64,000 nucleotides of DNA from Candidatus Magasanikiibacteriota bacterium (GCA_030650025.1 JAUSEN010000008.1:1164-65163), one strand, 5' to 3'; shown: positions 11,879 to 20,998, numbered from the stretch's first letter. Notes: generated by a model not told the origin, from the sequence alone. Numbers and translations: made by a program.

Positions 11879-13132
11879 TTATTTAATCACTCCCCCGCCT
11901 AAACACGCCCCGTTATTGTAAAACACCGCGAATTGCCCGGGCGTAACCGCGCGCTCTGGCTTTGCAAAATGAACGATAACGAGATTCCTCGTCGGCCTTC
12001 GGCCTCGCTCGGAATGACAACGAACAATGCACTCCTGCAATATCTGGCGATGGCGTAGGCGTACCTGGCATTTTAACGGAAATTGAGGTTTCTGACAAAT
12101 CCAATTAACGCCCGTAACCACAGCTTCTTTGGAAAACAAAAGCAGGTCATCTTCATAGCCAACAACCAATTCATTGGTTCTAATATTTTTAGCGACCACA
12201 TACAAAGGCCGATTCCCCTCTCCTTCGCAAAGGAGAGGGCGAGGGTGAGGACTCGCCAATCCCAAATGCCTCTGACCAATCGTATAAAACGCCAGACCAT
12301 CGTGTTTACCGACAACAATTCGCTGTAGGGGCGGGGTTACCCCGCCCTTACCGTACGACATTATAATCTTTCCCGGTTTATGTTTTATTCTTTTCTCCAA
12401 AAATTCTTTCATCGGCACTTCGCCAATAAAACAAATGCCCATGCTCTCGGCTTTATCCGCGACTGGCAAGCCAAATTTCTTAGCTAATTTCCTGACTTCT
12501 GGCTTAGTATATTCGCCCACGGGAAATAGAGTTTTAGATAACTGCTTCTGGTTTAGCTGGTGCAAAAAATATGTTTGGTCTTTATTTTTGTCTTTGGCTT
12601 CGAGAAGATGAACCAGACCTCCCCCAAACCCCTCCTTTGCGAAGGAGGGGGGTCGAGCTCCCTCTCCATCGCAATGGAGAGGGCGGGGGGTGAGGACTCG
12701 TCTCGCATAATGCCCGGTCGCCAAATAATCAAAACCCAATTCTTCTGCCTTTTTCAGCCAACTCCCAAATTTAATAAATTTATTGCACATCACATCCGGG
12801 TTCGGCGTCCGCCCCTGCCGGTATTCCGCGAACATGTAATCCAAAACATCGCGTTTATATTCTTTAACAAAATTCAGTTTCAAAATCGGAATATTTAATT
12901 GCGCGGCCACGCGCACAGCGTCGCGGTAATCCGGAACATAACAAGACTGCGTCTGTTGTAGTGGCCCGGCATGCCTGGCCACTACGTTTTCGCCGTCATC
13001 ATCGTAATTAATCATAAAAGCCGCCGTGACATTATATCCGGCTTTAACGAGGAGCGCGGCGGCTACGGCCGAGTCCACCCCACCACTAAGCGCCACTAAA
13101 ACTTTTATTTTTTTATTAAACTTTATTTTCAC
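11879..13132 (-). CDS. mnmA: tRNA 2-thiouridine(34) synthase MnmA carrying four in-frame palindromic-element insertions
   Basis: PP-loop SGGVDSAV, ...LATGHYARR..., KDQTYFL, YTIGQR, TPGQFAVFY. At 417 aa it is about 50 aa longer than canonical MnmA. The extra segments map exactly onto DNA palindromes; see findings. Confidence 0.9.
   Translation of the reverse strand: MKIKFNKKIKVLVALSGGVDSAVAAALLVKAGYNVTAAFMINYDDDGENVVARHAGPLQQTQSCYVPDYRDAVRVAAQLNIPILKLNFVKEYKRDVLDYMFAEYRQGRTPNPDVMCNKFIKFGSWLKKAEELGFDYLATGHYARRVLTPRPLHCDGEGARPPSFAKEGFGGGLVHLLEAKDKNKDQTYFLHQLNQKQLSKTLFPVGEYTKPEVRKLAKKFGLPVADKAESMGICFIGEVPMKEFLEKRIKHKPGKIIMSYGKGGVTPPLQRIVVGKHDGLAFYTIGQRHLGLASPHPRPLLCEGEGNRPLYVVAKNIRTNELVVGYEDDLLLFSKEAVVTGVNWICQKPQFPLKCQVRLRHRQILQECIVRCHSERGRRPTRNLVIVHFAKPERAVTPGQFAVFYNNGACLGGGVIK
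11981..12019. repeat. Half MITE-like element (GAGATTCCTCGTCGG-CCTTCGG-CCTCGCTCGGAATGACA) in-frame inside mnmA
   Basis: Encodes CHSERGRRPTRNL in MnmA. A reverse-complement copy is at 15666-15704, and an intergenic copy within 21090-21193. Confidence 0.6.
12215..12257. repeat. Palindrome CCCCTCTCCTTCGCAAAGGAGAGGG plus CGAGGGTGAGGACTCG tail, in-frame inside mnmA
   Basis: Encodes ...SPHPRPLLCEGEGNRPL.... A second, duplicated copy is at 12628-12704. Confidence 0.6.
12321..12344. repeat. Palindrome AGGGGCGGGGTAACCCCGCCC(C)T in-frame inside mnmA; identical in sequence to the intergenic terminator hairpin at 62143-62175
   Basis: Encodes GKGGVTPPLQ, inserted just before the conserved ...HDGLAFYTIGQR. 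Confidence 0.6.
12628..12704. repeat. Tandem palindromes CCCCTCCTTTGCGAAGGAGGGG and CCCTCTCCATCGCAATGGAGAGGG plus CGGGGGGTGAGGACTCG tail, in-frame inside mnmA
   Basis: Encodes RPLHCDGEGARPPSFAKEGFGGG, inserted between the conserved GHYARR and LLEAKDKNKDQTYFL. Confidence 0.6.
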
Positions 13133-13942: not shown

Positions 13943-14269
13943 TTAGCCCTGGTTGCGTCGCGCCATCATGCAAGATTTGCAGTAGACGGGGCGATCACCG
14001 GTTGGTTGGAAGGGCAATTCAGTGATTGCCATGCCGCACTGTCCGCAGGTTAAATTAACCTGGAACATTTGGCGCGGGCCGCGGCTCATGCCGCCACCCA
14101 TTCCTCCACCCATACCACCACCGCGGGTTTGGCGGAAAGCCCGATTGCAGTCGCTGCAATAAACGGGGCGGTCGCCAGACGGCTGAAACGGCAGCTGTGA
14201 AATGTGGGCCCCGCACTTAGCGCAGGTTAAATCCACATCGTACATCTGGCGGTCATTGCCATATGCCAT
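13943..14269 (-). CDS. Small protein with two tandem CxxC-x17-CxxC zinc-ribbon repeats separated by a (GGGM)3 linker
   Basis: Two copies of LTC(A/G)xCGxxIxxLPFQPxGDRPVYCxxC; linker GGGMGGGMGGGM. Confidence 0.6.
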   Translation of the reverse strand: MAYGNDRQMYDVDLTCAKCGAHISQLPFQPSGDRPVYCSDCNRAFRQTRGGGMGGGMGGGMSRGPRQMFQVNLTCGQCGMAITELPFQPTGDRPVYCKSCMMARRNQG

Positions 14270-14880: not shown

Positions 14881-14920
14881 AGATAAGCAAAGCTTGAAAT
14901 TGCGTCGGTCTTCGCAAAAA

Positions 14921-14948
14921 GAAAACTACAGTTTTCTTTTTGACTCAT
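14921..14948. terminator. Bidirectional intrinsic terminator downstream of the PPDK_N gene
   Basis: GAAAACTACAGTTTTC hairpin flanked by A-run/T-run (caaaaaGAAAACTacaGTTTTCtttttg). Confidence 0.55.
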
Positions 14949-14964
14949 CCCTAGCAATTATAAA

Positions 14965-16032
14965 TTAATTAGTAGTTCGATTTAAAGTCGTAATCGGCCG
15001 GCTCTGGGTGATATAAAATTTACTCCCGACTTTGGCCCATTCAATATCACAGGGGAAGCCATAATGCTTCTCAATATTTATAAAAATCTTAGCCGCTTCG
15101 ATAATTTCTTTGCCCGATAATTTTTGTTTTGTCCCTTCGCTCTCGCTAATATTTCCCCACTCATTGCGCTTCCCCTCTCCGCTATCTACTAACAAATCGC
15201 TTTTGGCGGAACGCGCCAACGCGTTCCCTACAAGTTTTTTTCCTACTAATTTTCGGGTCTGCGTCGCCACATTAATATCAAGAATGCTAAGCTCTGATTT
15301 ACTAACAATATAACTATCAGGAGTAATCTGACCGCCCACAATCGCTTCACCGAGGCCAAAACCGGCTTCTATTATCATCTGATCTCTGTCTTCGGTAACC
15401 GGATGCACGGTAAAAGCAATGCCTGACACTTCAGACTGTACCATAGTTTGCACTACCACCGCAACCGAAACATAGTGGTCGATTAAGTTCTTCTCGTGGC
15501 GGTAAAAAATTGCCCGAGGTGTGAATAGCGAAGACCAGCACTCTTTAACCCGCTCTACTACCTGCTCGGCTGGCGTATTTAAATATGTTTCCAGTTCCCC
15601 GGCCCAGCTCGCGACCGCCGAATCCTCCGCCGTCGCACTGCTCCGGACCGCCACCAAAAAATCATTGTCATTCCGAGCGAGGCCGGAGGCCGACGAGGAA
15701 TCTCCCGAAAGTTTAGCATGAGCTGCCAAAATTTCTACTTCTAAATCTTTGGGCATGGCATGGTCGTGAATCGCGTCCCGAATCACCGCGCTCGCTTTAT
15801 CAATCGAATTTACATCCGCCACGTTCACCTCTTTGAGCCGCGCACTAATTTCAGCATTCAAATCAGTTTCTTCTAAAAATCTATCAAAGGCGCTTGCGAG
15901 CACCACAAACCCGGGCGGGACAGGAATCCCGGTATTCGCCATCTCACCCAAACTGGCGCCTTTGCCACCCGCCTCGGCGACATTGTTTTTAGAAATTTCA
16001 TTGAAGAATTTTAGATGGGGCATACAACTCAA
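14965..16032 (-). CDS. PEP/pyruvate-binding (PPDK_N-type ATP-grasp nucleotide-binding) domain protein with an in-frame MITE insertion
   Basis: GGKGASLGEM ... GIPVPPGFVV ... FLVAVRSSATAED ... AG. The inserted segment SGDSSSASGLARNDND is encoded by the element at 15666-15704. Confidence 0.75.
   Translation of the reverse strand: MSCMPHLKFFNEISKNNVAEAGGKGASLGEMANTGIPVPPGFVVLASAFDRFLEETDLNAEISARLKEVNVADVNSIDKASAVIRDAIHDHAMPKDLEVEILAAHAKLSGDSSSASGLARNDNDFLVAVRSSATAEDSAVASWAGELETYLNTPAEQVVERVKECWSSLFTPRAIFYRHEKNLIDHYVSVAVVVQTMVQSEVSGIAFTVHPVTEDRDQMIIEAGFGLGEAIVGGQITPDSYIVSKSELSILDINVATQTRKLVGKKLVGNALARSAKSDLLVDSGEGKRNEWGNISESEGTKQKLSGKEIIEAAKIFINIEKHYGFPCDIEWAKVGSKFYITQSRPITTLNRTTN
15666..15704. 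repeat. Half MITE-like element (TGTCATTCCGAGCGAGGCCGGAGGCCGACGAGGAATCTC) in-frame inside the PPDK_N gene
   Basis: Reverse complement of the 11981-12019 family. Encodes SGDSSSASGLARNDND immediately before the conserved FLVAVRSSATAED. Confidence 0.6.
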
Positions 16033-16043
16033 AAATTAAAACC

Positions 16044-17459
16044 CTAAACCTTTTTTGCAGTACCCTTTACTGGATCAATCTCTACCAAATCTCCATTTTT
16101 AAATACTGTGGTCACGGTTTTCGTTCCAACAATGCATGGAATGTTTAATTCTCGGCTTGTAATAGCCGCATGCGAGGTGAGCCCACCGGTATCTGTTAAA
16201 ACTGCACAGGCCTTTTTCATAGCAAAAACATATTCCGGGCTAGTCATCGGCGCCACCAACACCTCACCTTCCTTAAAACTTTCTACCTTAGTTGGATCAA
16301 ATAAAATATGCACGACCCCCTTAATCATGGCGCCACTACCTTTACTCGCCACCGCCCCCCTTACTTCCGACGCTCCAACCGCAGATTTTTCTGTGCCATA
16401 CAAATTCCAATAAAAATCTACTTCCTGTGAGGATAATTCCCGGCAATCGTGGAAAAACCAAACGCCAAAACCATTGGCTCGTTTTTTTAATTCCTCGTGC
16501 AAATCTTGACCACTTATAATTTCGGCAATTTGATTATGCCACAAATTGTGTAACTCATCAAAACTATATTTATAACGACGCGCCACTTCGCTGGTCAAAA
16601 CATCAATATAATGCAAAATAATGAATATACTTTTTTTGCGTTCATCTTGCCACTCGATACCATACGTAATCGCCTTAGCTATAGCCATAATCTCTGGCGG
16701 TAAATTATATTGTGCTTGAAAACTGGCCTTGCGTTTAGCCGTTTCTGCTAATTTTGTTTTAACGTTACTTTCAAAATCAGTCGGGATTTCTTTTTTGTGT
16801 TCAGCAAACCAGGACTCAGACAAAATTTGGGTACCAGCATAGCTATTTTTTAACCAGTAAAATTGTTCAACGTGCTTTTTAAGATCGCTCGTGTTAACTA
16901 GGGCAATTTCTTCTTCCTGATAAAAAGAAATTTGCTCTGGCGCGGTTAACACTTCAAGAGCCGAACGCAATTCATCTTGGTCCGTAATAATAGGCTTTAA
17001 TTTTTCTGTCAGATACTCGGTCGAACCGTAATTTGCTAATTCGGGAATCGACCCAGCCACCCAAAATTTAAGATATAAATCATTAAAATTATTCCACAAC
17101 TTTAACAGCTCGCTATCGCTAGCAGCTGATAGTTTAAGCGAACCAATATGCTTTTCTAAGCTAGCGATCTCCCGATCATAACCCTGCCATTCTTTATATA
17201 TGCCCTCACGAGAAATCGAGGGTAACATGTACTTAACAAAAACTCGCTGCCCGGCCGCGACTACGTCTGGTGTGTTGTTAACCCAAAACGAACGACCGTC
17301 CTTAAACATCCATAAAGTCTCCGACCAATTTTCAGCAAACTTGGCACGAAAGGCTTGGTAGTGAGTCTCCACAAACGTAGAAACATACAAAAATTTGCCT
17401 GGCACTGGCCCCCAACGAAAAATATCGCCTTTGGAATCAAACGGAGTTTTATTTTGCAT
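16044..17459 (-). CDS. Protein with an unknown ~370-aa N-terminal domain and a C-terminal PEP-utilising-enzyme mobile (phosphohistidine swivel) domain
   Basis: C-terminus ...VLVAPMTSPEYVFAMKKACAVLTDTGGLTSHAAITSRELNIPCIVG carries the PEP-utilizers catalytic His motif. Overlaps the upstream HD gene by 11 nt. Confidence 0.7.
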   Translation of the reverse strand: MQNKTPFDSKGDIFRWGPVPGKFLYVSTFVETHYQAFRAKFAENWSETLWMFKDGRSFWVNNTPDVVAAGQRVFVKYMLPSISREGIYKEWQGYDREIASLEKHIGSLKLSAASDSELLKLWNNFNDLYLKFWVAGSIPELANYGSTEYLTEKLKPIITDQDELRSALEVLTAPEQISFYQEEEIALVNTSDLKKHVEQFYWLKNSYAGTQILSESWFAEHKKEIPTDFESNVKTKLAETAKRKASFQAQYNLPPEIMAIAKAITYGIEWQDERKKSIFIILHYIDVLTSEVARRYKYSFDELHNLWHNQIAEIISGQDLHEELKKRANGFGVWFFHDCRELSSQEVDFYWNLYGTEKSAVGASEVRGAVASKGSGAMIKGVVHILFDPTKVESFKEGEVLVAPMTSPEYVFAMKKACAVLTDTGGLTSHAAITSRELNIPCIVGTKTVTTVFKNGDLVEIDPVKGTAKKV

Positions 17460-18057
17460 ATGATTTATTAATTAATTCTATACTATTCCATTGTGGGTCG
17501 TGTGGTAAACCCATTTCCTGTCTGACCGCTTGCACCCGCTCGAAATATTTTCGGCAGGCCTCTAGAGTTTTTTCGTAAGCATAAGCATCATGGGTCCCTT
17601 CGTATGTAGAACAATCAAGAACATCGGCGTCTTTTACTAATTCCGCATATGGATTAGTCGAAACCACATGCTTATCGCTATGCTCATAAATCGCCTCGAC
17701 TATAATTTTGATTTCTTCTCCACTAAACTTATTAATCGACCGCAGATACTCTTCGGCAATTACAGCGCCTTTATGCGCGTGATCTTTGGCATCTCCCGAA
17801 ACATTTACGGCAATGTCATGCATCACACACACAATTGCTCCGATTTCGGGTCTTAAACCTCGCTTTTCTGCTAGCACCCGACCAAATTGGGCAACCGACG
17901 AACTGTGTTTAAGCTCAAATACTTTCCCCCAAACACGGCTCTCATCCGGAATTTTACTACAGCTTTCGAGTATCACTTCAACAACGTGGCGCTCTACCCG
18001 CTCAGCGCGCGACACGTTCTCGCCTTGAAAATGGGTGTAGGGGTTGGTGTTAGACAT
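17449..18057 (-). CDS. HD-domain protein
   Basis: H-x(n)-HD-x(n)-D pattern: ...HSSSVAQFG...VCVMHDIAVNVSG...KDADVLD. Confidence 0.55.
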   Translation of the reverse strand: MSNTNPYTHFQGENVSRAERVERHVVEVILESCSKIPDESRVWGKVFELKHSSSVAQFGRVLAEKRGLRPEIGAIVCVMHDIAVNVSGDAKDHAHKGAVIAEEYLRSINKFSGEEIKIIVEAIYEHSDKHVVSTNPYAELVKDADVLDCSTYEGTHDAYAYEKTLEACRKYFERVQAVRQEMGLPHDPQWNSIELINKSYAK

Positions 18058-18185
18058 ATTAAAAGATAAATTATTTTACACTCTAGAATAGCATTTTTTG
18101 GGTATTTCGTAAATCATCCGGCCACTCTCCGGTTGATTATAATCAAACTATTGGCTAACGCTAAGCTAAAATTTATAAAAAAAAT

Positions 18186-18206
18186 GTTGTAAGAGTCTTA
18201 CAACAT
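18186..18206 (-). terminator. Intrinsic terminator after the TrmB-like gene
   Basis: Perfect hairpin GTTGTAAGAgtTCTTACAAC followed on the minus strand by TTTTTTTTATAAATTTT. Confidence 0.6.
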
Positions 18207-18217
18207 TACCTGAAAAG

Positions 18218-19036
18218 CTACTTTTTAAAATTTCTCTGATCAGGTGGATATGGCTTATTTTTAATCTCATCTTTGGCATGCAACCACCCAAACTCAAAAA
18301 TTCGACGTTGTGACTCGGCAATCAGTGGGTCAACTACCGTAACTGCTCTATTTTCCTCTGGCAAAGCAATGCTAAAACTATTGTCAAAAATAGCCATAAA
18401 AGCGAACGAGGAAAATTCTTTAGGATCAATAAAACGCGCCTTCATGGGCGATGCTTTAGGATTTTTAATATACTTCATTTCCACATATTTTCTGGCTTCA
18501 GAAGTATCCATGAAAATAAACCGGGTCGGAATTTGTTTAGCAAATTTTTGAGGAAAATAAAAATTTTCTAAATAATCCTCAAACGGTTTAGCAAAAGCTT
18601 CGATTTTGGTCCACTCTAAAACTTCGGTTTTAGTATCTAACACAGCCGAAGCCCAATTCCGCAGTCCTTCTACTCCTTCATAATATATAACGTTAGTTTT
18701 AACAGGCTTTGGATTTTTACTAATTTCTTTAAGCTCCGGTACCAAAAATTCCAAAGCCCGCTCTTCGCGTTTTACTTGCTCCCCATGTTTACTAACGATA
18801 TCGTAAAGTTTAAATGGCGGGAAAGCCGCAAAACATCTTTTATTTTTTACAAATTCTTCATGCAAAAAACCTTTATCAATCAAGGATTTTATTAACCCAT
18901 AAGCACTCACACGCTTCTGCTTAGCTCTGCCTGCAATTTTTTGCACCGACTCAGGCCCTAATTCTAAACAAGCGACGTATACTTTAGCTTCAGCCAAAGT
19001 CAAATTAAATTTTTCCAATTCTTTAAAAATATTCAT
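18218..19036 (-). CDS. TrmB-family transcriptional regulator (N-terminal winged HTH)
   Basis: LTLAEAKVYVACLELGPESVQKIAGRAKQKRVSAYGLIKSLIDKGFL matches the TrmB HTH pattern. Confidence 0.65.
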   Translation of the reverse strand: MNIFKELEKFNLTLAEAKVYVACLELGPESVQKIAGRAKQKRVSAYGLIKSLIDKGFLHEEFVKNKRCFAAFPPFKLYDIVSKHGEQVKREERALEFLVPELKEISKNPKPVKTNVIYYEGVEGLRNWASAVLDTKTEVLEWTKIEAFAKPFEDYLENFYFPQKFAKQIPTRFIFMDTSEARKYVEMKYIKNPKASPMKARFIDPKEFSSFAFMAIFDNSFSIALPEENRAVTVVDPLIAESQRRIFEFGWLHAKDEIKNKPYPPDQRNFKK

Positions 19037-19066: not shown

Positions 19067-20998
19067 TTACCCACCAACATTCGCCACTGTATTCGGAGGC
19101 AAGTTCTGCGGCGGGCGGGGCGGTTTAGACGGCTCGGGCACAAACCCCAAATCTAATGGCGCTGGCACATCGACTGGCGGGGACGGAGTTGTTGATTTTT
19201 GGGCACTGACAATATCAATTGATATTGGCTTTTGAACAAGTGGCGCGGGCGCTGTCAAAGTACGCAAAGAAACGCCGGGCGCGGCCGGGTTGCCGAGTAA
19301 TACCGGAGTCCCTCCGCCTGGCGGCATACCCCCGCCCCCTCGGTTCCTTTTACGCTTACGCTTTTTTTCTTGACCAGGCCCACCTGGTACGCTGGGAGCA
19401 GAGTTAAATTGAGGTGGGCGAGAGAAACTAGCGAGCGGCTTAGGTGTTGCAACAGGGGGCTTAGGCAGAGACGAATTCAGCGATTTTTGGGTTATTGGCA
19501 AAGGCGCCGGAGCCGATCTCACCGCCACCGGCAGACTGGCTGTTGACTTATTATTAGTAGAAGCAGAATTAGAAACAGGCAGAGAGGCAAGCGCGGCGAC
19601 TTTGGGTGGAATGTCACCAAACATCGCTTCGTCTTCATCAACTTCTAAATTACCAGCTTCGTCCCCACCCGTGACTAGCATGCCGCTCCAACGCGCGATT
19701 TTATCTTCAATCTTCTCGCGCGGCAGGGCATAGCGCTCGCGCGATACTCGAATCACCTTTTCCGTACTGTCAGTCGGGGTGCCAATTGGCGGCAGGGTCA
19801 AGGCGCTAAACGGCCGCGAAGCCACGCCATCAATCATCAGTTTTAAATAAACATGGTACTTAGGCAAATTAACTAAATCTTCTTCTATAAACGTCGGCGC
19901 GAATTCTTTGGCTAAAATTTCGGCGTCACTCGAACCCACTCTAAAAGTAATCATGGTGCCAACGTTGCCAACCACCGCGGCCAACACTTCCTCTTCCAGC
20001 TGTTCCATGTACTGGTGCGCCATGGTTAAGTCCAGCCGATACTTACGCGCTTCGGACAAAATATTCGCGAAGCTTTCGTTGGCAAAATTTTGGAACTCGT
20101 CTACATACATAAAAAAATCTTTGCGCTCGGTCTCGGGGATATCCACCCGCTCCATAGCCGCCAGCTGGATCTTGGTAATCAGCATACCGCCGAGGAGCCG
20201 AGAATTATCCTCGCCGATCCGGCCTTTAGAAAGATTCATTATAAAAATTCTTTTATTATCCATTATCTCGCGAATATCGATGCGAGATTTAACTTGCGCC
20301 ACAATGTTGCGAATAACCGATGCCGACAAAAACTGACCGATTTTATTTTGGATCGGCGCCACGGCCTCGGTCCGAAACTTCTCGGCATAATTAGCGAACT
20401 CCGTGGTCCAAAAAGCTTTCACGACCGGGTCCTTGGAATTATTAACCACGCGGCGGCGATAGTCCGCGTCCGCTAGCATTCGATTAATGCCAAGTAATGT
20501 CGTCCCCGGGAAATCTAAAAGCGCGAGTATTGTGTTATTCAAAATATATTCCATACGTGCGCTCCACACATCCGGCCAGATTTTTTTAAACACGCCCATG
20601 AGGCCACTCGCCACCAAATGCTTTTGCTCGGGCCGGACAGTTTCTAAAATATTAAACCCAATCGGAAAATCAATGTCCGCCGGATTAAAATAAACCACGT
20701 CATTAATGCGGTTCGCCGGAATGTAATTAATAATTTTTTCCGCGAAGTCCCCGTGCGGGTCTACCAAGCCCACCCCATGCCCGGCGTAAATATCGTTCAA
20801 AACCATATTTTCCAAAATCGTGGTTTTGCCCATGCCGGTTTTACCCACCACATAAACATGCCGGCGGCGATCGTCGATTTTAATGCCAAACTTCCGATTT
20901 TGATTCCGAAAATTAGTTAAACCAAAAAAATTAATCTCTGGGTTAGATTTTATAGTGCCTGCTTGCGGCTCCAAGCCACCACCTTGTTCTTCACTCAT
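19067..20998 (-). CDS. VirD4/TraG/TraD-like type IV coupling-protein ATPase with a Pro-rich low-complexity C-terminal tail
   Basis: Walker A VVGKTGMGKTT; Walker B FFMYVDEFQNF; RKYRLDLTMAHQYMEQL (TraG-D_C-like motif). C-terminal ~200 aa is P/S/A-rich with KKRKRKRNRGGGG. Confidence 0.6.
   Translation of the reverse strand: MSEEQGGGLEPQAGTIKSNPEINFFGLTNFRNQNRKFGIKIDDRRRHVYVVGKTGMGKTTILENMVLNDIYAGHGVGLVDPHGDFAEKIINYIPANRINDVVYFNPADIDFPIGFNILETVRPEQKHLVASGLMGVFKKIWPDVWSARMEYILNNTILALLDFPGTTLLGINRMLADADYRRRVVNNSKDPVVKAFWTTEFANYAEKFRTEAVAPIQNKIGQFLSASVIRNIVAQVKSRIDIREIMDNKRIFIMNLSKGRIGEDNSRLLGGMLITKIQLAAMERVDIPETERKDFFMYVDEFQNFANESFANILSEARKYRLDLTMAHQYMEQLEEEVLAAVVGNVGTMITFRVGSSDAEILAKEFAPTFIEEDLVNLPKYHVYLKLMIDGVASRPFSALTLPPIGTPTDSTEKVIRVSRERYALPREKIEDKIARWSGMLVTGGDEAGNLEVDEDEAMFGDIPPKVAALASLPVSNSASTNNKSTASLPVAVRSAPAPLPITQKSLNSSLPKPPVATPKPLASFSRPPQFNSAPSVPGGPGQEKKRKRKRNRGGGGMPPGGGTPVLLGNPAAPGVSLRTLTAPAPLVQKPISIDIVSAQKSTTPSPPVDVPAPLDLGFVPEPSKPPRPPQNLPPNTVANVGG

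Follow-up and report, generated by a model that had tools for sequence, protein, structure and literature searches.

A 64,000-nt stretch of DNA from Candidatus Magasanikiibacteriota bacterium (GCA_030650025.1 JAUSEN010000008.1:1164-65163; hereafter the window) carries on its minus strand three genes in tight succession, which encode an HD-domain protein (HD1), a kinase subunit with a phosphohistidine swivel domain, and a separate ATP-grasp subunit. This cassette is a genuine, conserved and uncharacterised operon. We think it probable that it encodes a two-component ATP-dependent small-molecule dikinase of the type of rifampin phosphotransferase (RPH) and HpeHI together with an HD phosphohydrolase, probably under the control of a TrmB-family protein. 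This assignment is based on domain content, catalytic motifs and gene coupling, on RPH as the best fold match, on fused relatives in the RPH domain order, and on published two-component homologues. It also draws on four residues of the kinase subunit (R274, K275, D272 and R327) that are kept in 69-90% of paralogues, with R274 placed much like Arg666 of RPH.

Organization of the cassette

The features of the cassette and its borders, in window coordinates, are as follows.

18218-19036, minus strand: gene for a TrmB-family transcriptional regulator, 272 aa, with an N-terminal winged helix (PF01978, E 1.1e-10)
18183-18207, minus strand: terminator-like hairpin in the interval between the TrmB gene and HD1, an 11-bp stem followed by a T-run
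17449-18057, minus strand: HD1, a putative stand-alone HD-domain metal-dependent phosphohydrolase, 202 aa (PF01966)
16044-17459, minus strand: kinase subunit
16374-17459, minus strand: central domain of the kinase subunit, residues 1-362, mostly helical, with a predicted fold like that of the RPH rifampin-binding domain
16044-16373, minus strand: phosphohistidine swivel domain of the kinase subunit, residues ~363-471, motif TDTGGLTSHAAI; predicted phosphocarrier His430, codon 16172-16170
14965-16032, minus strand: stand-alone ATP-grasp (PPDK_N) subunit, 355 aa from TTG 16032 or 352 aa from ATG 16023
14915-14942, minus strand: A/U-rich 12-bp hairpin immediately after the ATP-grasp gene (RNA fold -21.4 kcal/mol, z -3.5)

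An earlier note on this DNA had proposed three translationally coupled minus-strand genes, and open reading frame (ORF) calls returned all three at the same positions. Pfam likewise bore out their proposed content, namely an HD domain, an unassigned domain followed by a swivel, and PPDK_N. HD1 and the kinase subunit overlap by 11 nt, with the HD1 stop codon (TAA, 17451-17449) lying beyond the kinase-subunit ATG (17459-17457). The kinase-subunit stop is at 16046-16044; the 11-nt gap that the note described between this gene and the next holds from the TTG start at 16032 and becomes 20 nt from the ATG at 16023. The hairpin after the ATP-grasp gene was missed by a G+C-dependent terminator scan, but is probably the end of the operon. 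Together with the hairpin at 18207-18183, it delimits a transcription unit of HD1, kinase subunit and ATP-grasp subunit.

Predicted fold of the kinase-subunit central domain

The 471-aa kinase subunit is 100% identical to a GenBank protein of a Candidatus Magasanikbacteria metagenome-assembled genome, within the Patescibacteria/CPR. Its only Pfam domain is PF00391, at residues 395-466. Residues 1 to ~365 had no match in Pfam, NCBIfam, PADLOC or PDB sequences, even with a 21-sequence profile, and a PADLOC scan found no defence-system match. A search of PDB sequences, with either the single protein or the N-domain profile, returned a sigma factor only, at an E value (0.85) expected by chance. 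The central domain carries the invariant motifs ELANYGS, LTAPE..SFYQEEE, FWLKNSY and EWQDERKK, in addition to R327.

The kinase subunit was modelled with AlphaFold2 using 40 diverse homologues (predicted local distance difference test score, pLDDT, 94.6; predicted template-modelling score, pTM, 0.92). The model consists of a mainly helical domain of ~360 residues followed by the beta-rich swivel. When it was compared with the PDB by Foldseek, six RPH-Lm entries ranked first (E 1.5e-12 to 1e-10; best 5fbt, E 1.5e-12), with alignments of 555-585 columns that covered both the central domain and the swivel and template-modelling scores over the query (TMq) of 0.59-0.60. Enzymes matched through the swivel only (pyruvate kinase, pyruvate phosphate dikinase [PPDK] and enzyme I) reached E values of 4e-6 or worse over fewer columns, with TMq ~0.2, and RPH exceeded the other matches by six orders of magnitude. 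As the RPH-Lm alignments span the central domain whereas the swivel-only enzymes reach only TMq ~0.2, the central domain is predicted to have the fold of the RPH rifampin-binding domain and not that of the TIM barrel of phosphoenolpyruvate (PEP) synthase. The uncharacterised domain of the earlier note is therefore not the ordinary PEP-synthase domain that would have undone its proposal.

Two further links by sequence were tried and set aside. A single RPH-like sequence compared with the central-domain profile aligned through the swivel alone, and ~580-aa relatives, used as a bridge to the PpsA-like PRK08296 models, matched only within the swivel domains.

Catalytic domains and conserved residues

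The swivel domain was recognised by PF00391 with an E value of 1.6e-24, and its best PDB sequence matches were archaeal PEP synthases (E 6.7e-24). The phosphocarrier motif T/SxxGGxxxH is present as T422-D-T-G-G-L-T-S-H430, and His430 is invariant among orthologues and retained in 97% of paralogues. The swivel also retains the PEP-synthase motif GGxTSHAAI, including a Thr (T428) at the regulatory position, where HpeH, CreH, PpsA (of PpsAB) and RPH have Met (PMC12167813). The ATP-grasp subunit matched PF01326 (E 3.6e-92, profile positions 3-315 of 328) and the N-terminal part of the PEP-synthase model NF005057, at positions 6-341 only. In the PDB it was closest to PEP synthases (E ~1e-64), then to RPH's ATP-grasp domain (5hv6, E 2e-53), and it is 38% identical to residues 11-341 of Acinetobacter baumannii PpsA. 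Its nucleotide-binding motifs GGKGASLGEM and VAVRSSATAED are invariant.

These similarities bear on whether the cassette instead belongs to central carbon metabolism, as a PEP synthase or PPDK dispersed over three pieces. Both catalytic domains are nearer in sequence to PEP synthase than to RPH (for the ATP-grasp subunit, 329 bits with NF005057 vs 254 bits with the RPH model), the two together span PEP synthase positions 6-454 in Pfam/NCBIfam, and some homologues are named 'phosphoenolpyruvate synthase/pyruvate phosphate dikinase'. Scores with the full PEP-synthase models were nevertheless well under the cutoffs (NF005057, 329 and 102 bits vs 598; TIGR01418, 321 and 90 bits vs 739.75). A tblastn search with the PpsA C-terminal domain found no PEP-utilizers_C or TIM-barrel domain, and no PSRP regulator was found either, in the cassette, the 64-kb window or ~90 related loci. 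In such an enzyme the strongly conserved 362-aa central domain would also lack a role. We regard a dispersed PEP synthase as largely refuted already and very improbable.

Residues of the kinase subunit were sorted by comparing 58 orthologues with 94 paralogues from tandem arrays. Residues common to both sets were His430 (97%), R327 (90%), W202 (81%), R274 (79%), K275 (73%) and D272 (69%). Because they are kept in highly diverged paralogues, they are candidates for the phosphotransfer site. The orthologue-specific residues E140, N143, Y144, G145, Y180, E184, N205, S206, H283 and W351 are candidates for substrate recognition. R274 lies 156 residues ahead of the catalytic His430, and the essential Arg666 of RPH stands 159 residues ahead of His825 (PMC4844700); R274 would thus be its positional equivalent.

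All domains needed for the relay that the earlier note had put forward, from ATP to phosphohistidine to an acceptor bound by an uncharacterised domain, are present. By analogy with the characterised RPH and HpeHI, the free ATP-grasp protein would bind ATP and the swivel of the 471-aa subunit would dock on it in trans. His430 would take the beta-phosphate, with release of AMP and of the gamma-phosphate as Pi. The swivel would then swing back to its own helical central domain, where the phosphate would pass to a hydroxyl of the bound acceptor with help from R327 and the basic/acidic cluster D272-R274-K275.

The division into two polypeptides

A central-plus-swivel protein of ~470 aa and a separate PPDK_N protein of ~310-335 aa recur in dozens of independent assemblies across phyla, and the split was seen in over 100 assemblies altogether. 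An exhaustive profile search (2123 representatives at E <= 0.001) also returned close relatives fused in the canonical order ATP-grasp, central, swivel (P0152, 784 aa; P0135; L026; L055), and these carry the same central domain (E 1e-101 to 1e-112). The existence of fused relatives is what an assembly or frameshift artefact splitting one RPH-like gene would lead one to expect. Recurrence of the same split with the same protein lengths in so many assemblies does not fit such an artefact, and a frameshift in a canonical fused gene could not place the His-domain gene ahead of the ATP-grasp gene. The artefact reading is refuted, and we find it scarcely credible; the split is genuine.

The term 'domain-permuted', under which the cassette was first described, did not survive as a novelty, since a substrate/His gene followed by an ATP-grasp gene has already been published for HpeHI, CreHI and PpsAB (PMC12167813). 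The reference order against which permutation had been judged (ATP-grasp, substrate, His) is right for RPH and wrong for PEP synthase and PPDK, where the His domain occupies the middle and the substrate TIM barrel the C-terminal end (PMC4844700). The ATP-grasp gene precedes the other genes at some related loci, and follows them or sits among them at others. Gene order alone varies, and no polypeptide is permuted.

HD1, the TrmB-family regulator and their conservation

HD1 scored 42.8 bits with PF01966 (cutoff 22). Its 88 homologues are nearly all at least 48% identical and are restricted to the Candidate Phyla Radiation (CPR) and to DPANN. Residues H51, H80-D81, H93, H126 and D143 were invariant in 33 sequences, as were several Lys and Arg residues, a pattern that fits a metal-dependent phosphohydrolase. 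The AlphaFold2 model of HD1 (pLDDT 92.4) matched only HD hydrolases, and these weakly (E >=0.008, TM 0.4-0.5): YqeK, SP1746, YpgQ and PgpH, which are small and nucleotide-acting. The substrate of HD1 is most likely a phosphoester or diphosphate from the pathway of the kinase, be it the kinase product or a precursor, although HD1 could also be an accessory subunit or a reset phosphatase.

The protein encoded upstream is likely the regulator of the operon. Apart from its winged helix it showed weak PDB similarity, to residues 11-139 of TrmBL2 only, and the TrmB sugar-binding domain was not detected in its C-terminal ~190 aa by Pfam, NCBIfam or PDB sequence searches.

Gene neighbourhoods were compared in 81 non-redundant loci from reference genomes, seeded with the kinase subunit and taken with 6-kb flanks on either side, using hidden Markov models built from the window proteins. 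Twelve of these loci contained HD1, which in 11 cases lay directly upstream of the kinase subunit and usually overlapped it, and a TrmB-type gene was found in 16 of the 81. At all three loci seeded with HD1, it adjoined the kinase subunit, and at two of them it was flanked by the TrmB-type gene:

L087, Woesearchaeote: TrmB, HD1, kinase subunit, ATP-grasp
L089, Uhrbacterium: TrmB, HD1, kinase subunit, ATP-grasp
L088, another Patescibacterium: ATP-grasp, kinase subunit, HD1, kinase-like gene

The HD protein linked to the cassette is the upstream HD1 only, and TrmB, HD1, kinase subunit and ATP-grasp recur together across several CPR phyla and in a Woesearchaeote. Elsewhere, the central, swivel and HD domains are fused in one protein (P0121), and at L005 an HD gene lies directly downstream of the kinase subunit. 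A second, distinct HD family of ~200 aa occurs inside paralogue arrays (L031, L048, L076, L077 and L078; e.g. L078:8974-9573). The link between HD proteins and the kinase is thus drawn from the 11-nt overlap, the 12 kinase-seeded and 3 of 3 HD1-seeded loci, the P0121 fusion and the second HD family in arrays.

The same coupling and fusion would also be compatible with a phosphorelay whose recipient is a macromolecule or HD1. Here the His would phosphorylate a protein, as PTS enzyme I does HPr, the helical domain would dock the partner, and HD1 would serve as output or reset. In a milder version, HD1 would be an accessory stimulatory subunit comparable to PpsC, which has that role in phenylphosphate synthase. 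Also in its favour, HD1 is more conserved than the kinase subunit, and the swivel keeps the PEP-synthase-type Thr at the regulatory position T428 (PMC12167813). Against this, enzyme I fragments matched the swivel part only (TMq 0.16-0.20), the central domain resembles a small-molecule-binding domain, and the HD partners differ in subfamily by lineage, which is hard to square with one specific protein-protein relay. We give a phosphorelay little likelihood.

Points that weigh against a small-molecule dikinase

Several results weigh against the assignment of the cassette as a two-component dikinase of the RPH/HpeHI type with an HD partner. The query for the fold match was the two-domain model, in which the central domain alone was estimated to contribute a TM of only ~0.5. 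A profile-profile comparison by hhalign of the central domain with the RPH/HpeH-type central domain (A2 vs A4) gave a probability below 1% (E 0.81). PF27448, which marks the RPH/HpeH central domain, was present in 119 of the 120 RPH-like relatives listed and in 0 of the 120 CPR homologues listed. The comparison with the RPH rifampin-binding domain that the earlier note had called for was therefore positive for fold and negative for sequence: by sequence the acceptor domain stands outside that family, yet the cassette has the RPH/HpeHI architecture and, in the model, its fold.

The co-occurrence of the three genes was similarly divided. The association of HD1, kinase and ATP-grasp recurs, but about two thirds of HD1-type loci have no ATP-grasp gene within 6 kb, so that the phosphoryl donor at those loci is presumptive. 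In other lineages, HD domains that are fused to the kinase subunit or lie next to it do not belong to the HD1 type; those of P0121 and L005 were tried as such and showed only generic similarity. A kinase and a phosphatase acting on the same compound would make a futile cycle. Finally, the ATP-grasp gene of the window has acquired two recent 14-aa insertions, although frame and motifs are preserved.

Nature of the acceptor

The orthologue-specific residues are polar, acidic or aromatic (E140, N143, Y144, Y180, E184, N205, H283 and W351), and the family of the regulator is a sugar-sensing one. On these two observations, a polar metabolite with hydroxyl groups (sugar, polyol, glycan or nucleoside-like) is weakly preferred to a hydrophobic aromatic compound as the acceptor.

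A more specific form of the dikinase assignment is a cycle of glucan or sugar phosphorylation and dephosphorylation, in which the dikinase would act like glucan, water dikinase (GWD), HD1 like SEX4/LSF2 in starch turnover, and TrmB as a sugar-sensing switch. A TrmB-family regulator is the most frequent neighbour, Trp/Tyr and Glu/Asn/Gln abound among the invariant residues specific to the orthologues, as they do in carbohydrate sites, GWD likewise has its His domain ahead of the ATP-binding domain, and a kinase/phosphatase pair would make sense for a cyclic modification. No carbohydrate-binding module was detected by Pfam, however, nor was the C-terminal sugar-binding domain of TrmB; glycoside hydrolases or transporters are not consistently conserved as neighbours; and the structures nearest HD1 are nucleotide-acting. 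Such a cycle is conceivable but unlikely.

Alternatively, the enzyme might inactivate xenobiotics or antibiotics as RPH does, and so protect a symbiont from natural products of its host or community. RPH is the closest solved structure, and its family acts on bulky natural products (PMC4844700), with zearalenone and flavonoid kinases also in the literature. One CPR resistome survey counts rph-like hits, generically (PMC8651080), and diversified paralogue arrays would suit a broad detoxification repertoire. With the RPH model NF041857 (RIF_Ptrans_rph), however, the scores of 254 bits, through the ATP-grasp only, and 31.6 bits, through the swivel only, were far under the cutoff of 999 bits, and rifampin is an unlikely substrate. 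The central domain falls ~80 aa short of that of RPH and is unrelated in sequence, strong conservation across distant phyla and polar pocket residues suggest a housekeeping metabolite, and neither the HD partner nor the TrmB regulator is a feature of rph loci. A role in detoxification is in our estimation quite improbable.

Neighbouring genes and palindromic insertions

Downstream of the transcription unit, and outside it, lie a 150-aa ORF, a zinc-ribbon gene and a second HD gene. The latter two had been reported in the earlier note and were found again:

13943-14269: zinc-ribbon gene, tandem CxxC-x17-CxxC (zf_Tbcl_2 / TIGR04272) with a Gly/Met-rich linker
13150-13782/13854: second HD gene, YpgQ/YedJ-like

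The cassette had also been described as bracketed by HD hydrolases. This holds for HD1, which is coupled and co-conserved, but not for the downstream HD, which is of a different type. The second HD gene, with a promoter-like site of its own, comes after another terminator, at 13929-13901. It is separated from the cassette by two genes and a terminator-like hairpin and accompanies the cassette in one close relative only. Its position beside the cassette is coincidental, and the downstream HD and zinc-ribbon genes represent local synteny. Zinc-ribbon homologues were seen ~2.5 kb from a kinase-HD pair at L005/L006, which are distant loci, and also in the close relatives L012/L013, a number of cases too small for linkage to be claimed. 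On the other side of the cassette, a gene at 19067-20998 encodes a VirD4/TrwB-like type IV secretion coupling protein, whose long C-terminal tail is Pro/Ser-rich and of low complexity, and is syntenic with the cassette in L012/L013.

Two insertions in the ATP-grasp gene are associated with palindromes:

15662-15704, minus strand: GC-rich palindromic element of 43 nt, in frame, encoding a 14-aa extra loop
15205-15228, minus strand: core of a second in-frame insertion of 42 nt, palindrome GGAACGCGTTGGCGCGTTCC, extra peptide GKKLVGNALARSAK

Both are missing from orthologues 72% identical to the window protein. A second copy of the 43-nt element, 95% identical and in the opposite orientation, lies in mnmA (11981-12023), which also contains three copies of another hairpin (12216-12239, 12628-12651 and 12660-12683). 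These in-frame palindromic insertions are reminiscent of Rickettsia palindromic elements.

Other contexts of the kinase subunit were noted among the fetched loci. The lineage of L005:2852-8087 is labelled 'archaeon' yet has sigma-70 and DnaK/DnaJ/GrpE genes; here dnaK and dnaJ are separated by the kinase subunit and an HD gene. At Woesearchaeota-type loci (L020, L023, L036, L037 and L069), the kinase subunit is found with an ABC-2 transporter pair, an AAA_18 kinase, eRF1, a 225-aa protein and an M50 peptidase; this conserved block is probably lineage synteny. A hidden conserved partner downstream of the kinase subunit was sought at loci without an adjacent ATP-grasp gene, where the genes proved heterogeneous (NTP-transferase, CorA, flippase and AI-2E transporter).

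Tandem arrays and multi-module proteins

Many relatives of the kinase subunit occur in tandem arrays. Among the 81 loci, 39 have at least three swivel modules and 19 at least five, with a maximum of eight within ~13 kb. In total there were 239 swivel modules vs 24 ATP-grasp (PPDK_N) genes, and never more than one ATP-grasp gene per locus. The central domains of paralogues within an array are only 19-28% identical. Examples of tandem arrays are:

L067:1-12051
L072:57-12598
L061:109-11481
L030:144-11025
L045:713-7422

At other loci, the modules are joined in uninterrupted giant ORFs, including strings of 4 to at least 7 swivel modules:

L033:546-5960: single ORF of 1805 aa, ATP-grasp plus three (central + swivel) modules
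L046:1085-5995: single ORF, ATP-grasp plus three modules
L043:5020-8709: single ORF, ATP-grasp plus two modules
L029:1-8409: single ORF of at least 2803 aa, seven or more swivel modules
L038:1-7365: single ORF, six swivel modules
L052:1-5928: a further uninterrupted multi-module ORF

From their domain strings, these ORFs look like multi-module dikinase polyproteins of CPR/DPANN genomes. The HD1/TrmB type, as in the window, was single-module in all cases. A literature search found no description of the cassette clade or of the multi-module forms.

The window cassette may accordingly be the single-module form of a modular system found throughout CPR/DPANN, in which one ATP-grasp 'charging' subunit serves many diversified acceptor/His modules with recurrent HD partners; we offer this tentatively, as somewhat short of an even chance. 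If it were true, genome-reduced symbionts could combinatorially and irreversibly phosphorylate, and so trap or neutralise, many small molecules. About 30% of the genes in the fetched loci belong to the cassette family, and these genomes are among the smallest known. The identity of the substrate could reveal how ultra-small symbionts capture or defuse host metabolites. Public records label these genes "PEP-utilizing enzyme" or "PEP synthase/PPDK", and they may be counted as gluconeogenic enzymes or rph resistance genes when the metabolism or resistome of CPR/DPANN organisms is reconstructed, neither of which applies.

Comparison with known dikinases

The closest architectural parallels are the two-component RPH-like dikinases described by Dexter et al., in which HpeH combines RIF-binding-like and swivel domains and HpeI is the ATP-grasp protein, with CreHI and phenylphosphate synthase PpsAB as further members (PMC12167813). 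The cassette likewise consists of two polypeptides, an RPH-type substrate domain with the swivel His and a free ATP-grasp protein, encoded by adjacent genes with the substrate/His gene first, and it shares the T/SxxGGxxxH motif. The expected chemistry would also be the same (ATP + acceptor-OH -> AMP + Pi + acceptor-phosphate). In contrast to these systems, the central domain of the cassette is ~360 aa rather than ~480 aa, with no detectable sequence similarity and no PF27448; a Thr stands two residues before the His, as in PEP synthase, where the HpeHI type has Met; and the ATP-grasp and swivel domains are nearer PEP synthase. In place of carboxylases of aromatic catabolism, the cassette has an HD hydrolase and a TrmB regulator as partners. 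Its hosts are CPR bacteria and DPANN archaea, and the family differs further in its paralogue arrays and multi-module polyproteins.

RPH (PDB 5fbt/5hv1; PMC4844700) is the best structural match, and fused members of the cassette family share its three-part logic and domain order. In both, a conserved Arg/Lys cluster lies upstream of the catalytic His by a similar number of residues. RPH consists of one chain of ~865 aa, whereas the cassette is split and its central domain has no sequence similarity to that of RPH. By sequence, both the ATP-grasp subunit and the swivel are most closely related to PEP synthase, but the cassette is without the TIM-barrel domain and PSRP and has an unrelated helical acceptor domain ahead of the swivel.

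The plant and algal glucan, water dikinases (GWD/PWD) resemble the cassette in having a substrate-binding part and His domain ahead of the ATP-binding domain, and they are paired in vivo with dedicated phosphatases. They differ in being one large polypeptide with CBM45/CBM20 carbohydrate-binding modules, of which none were found in the cassette.

Relative to these enzymes, the split two-component layout was already known; the PEP-synthase-like catalytic modules, the HD/TrmB partners and the CPR/DPANN distribution set the cassette apart as a variant. The combination of an acceptor domain unrecognised by sequence with PEP-synthase-like catalytic modules may inform the evolution of such enzymes, and the RPH/HpeHI dikinase design would extend well past aromatic catabolism and antibiotic resistance.

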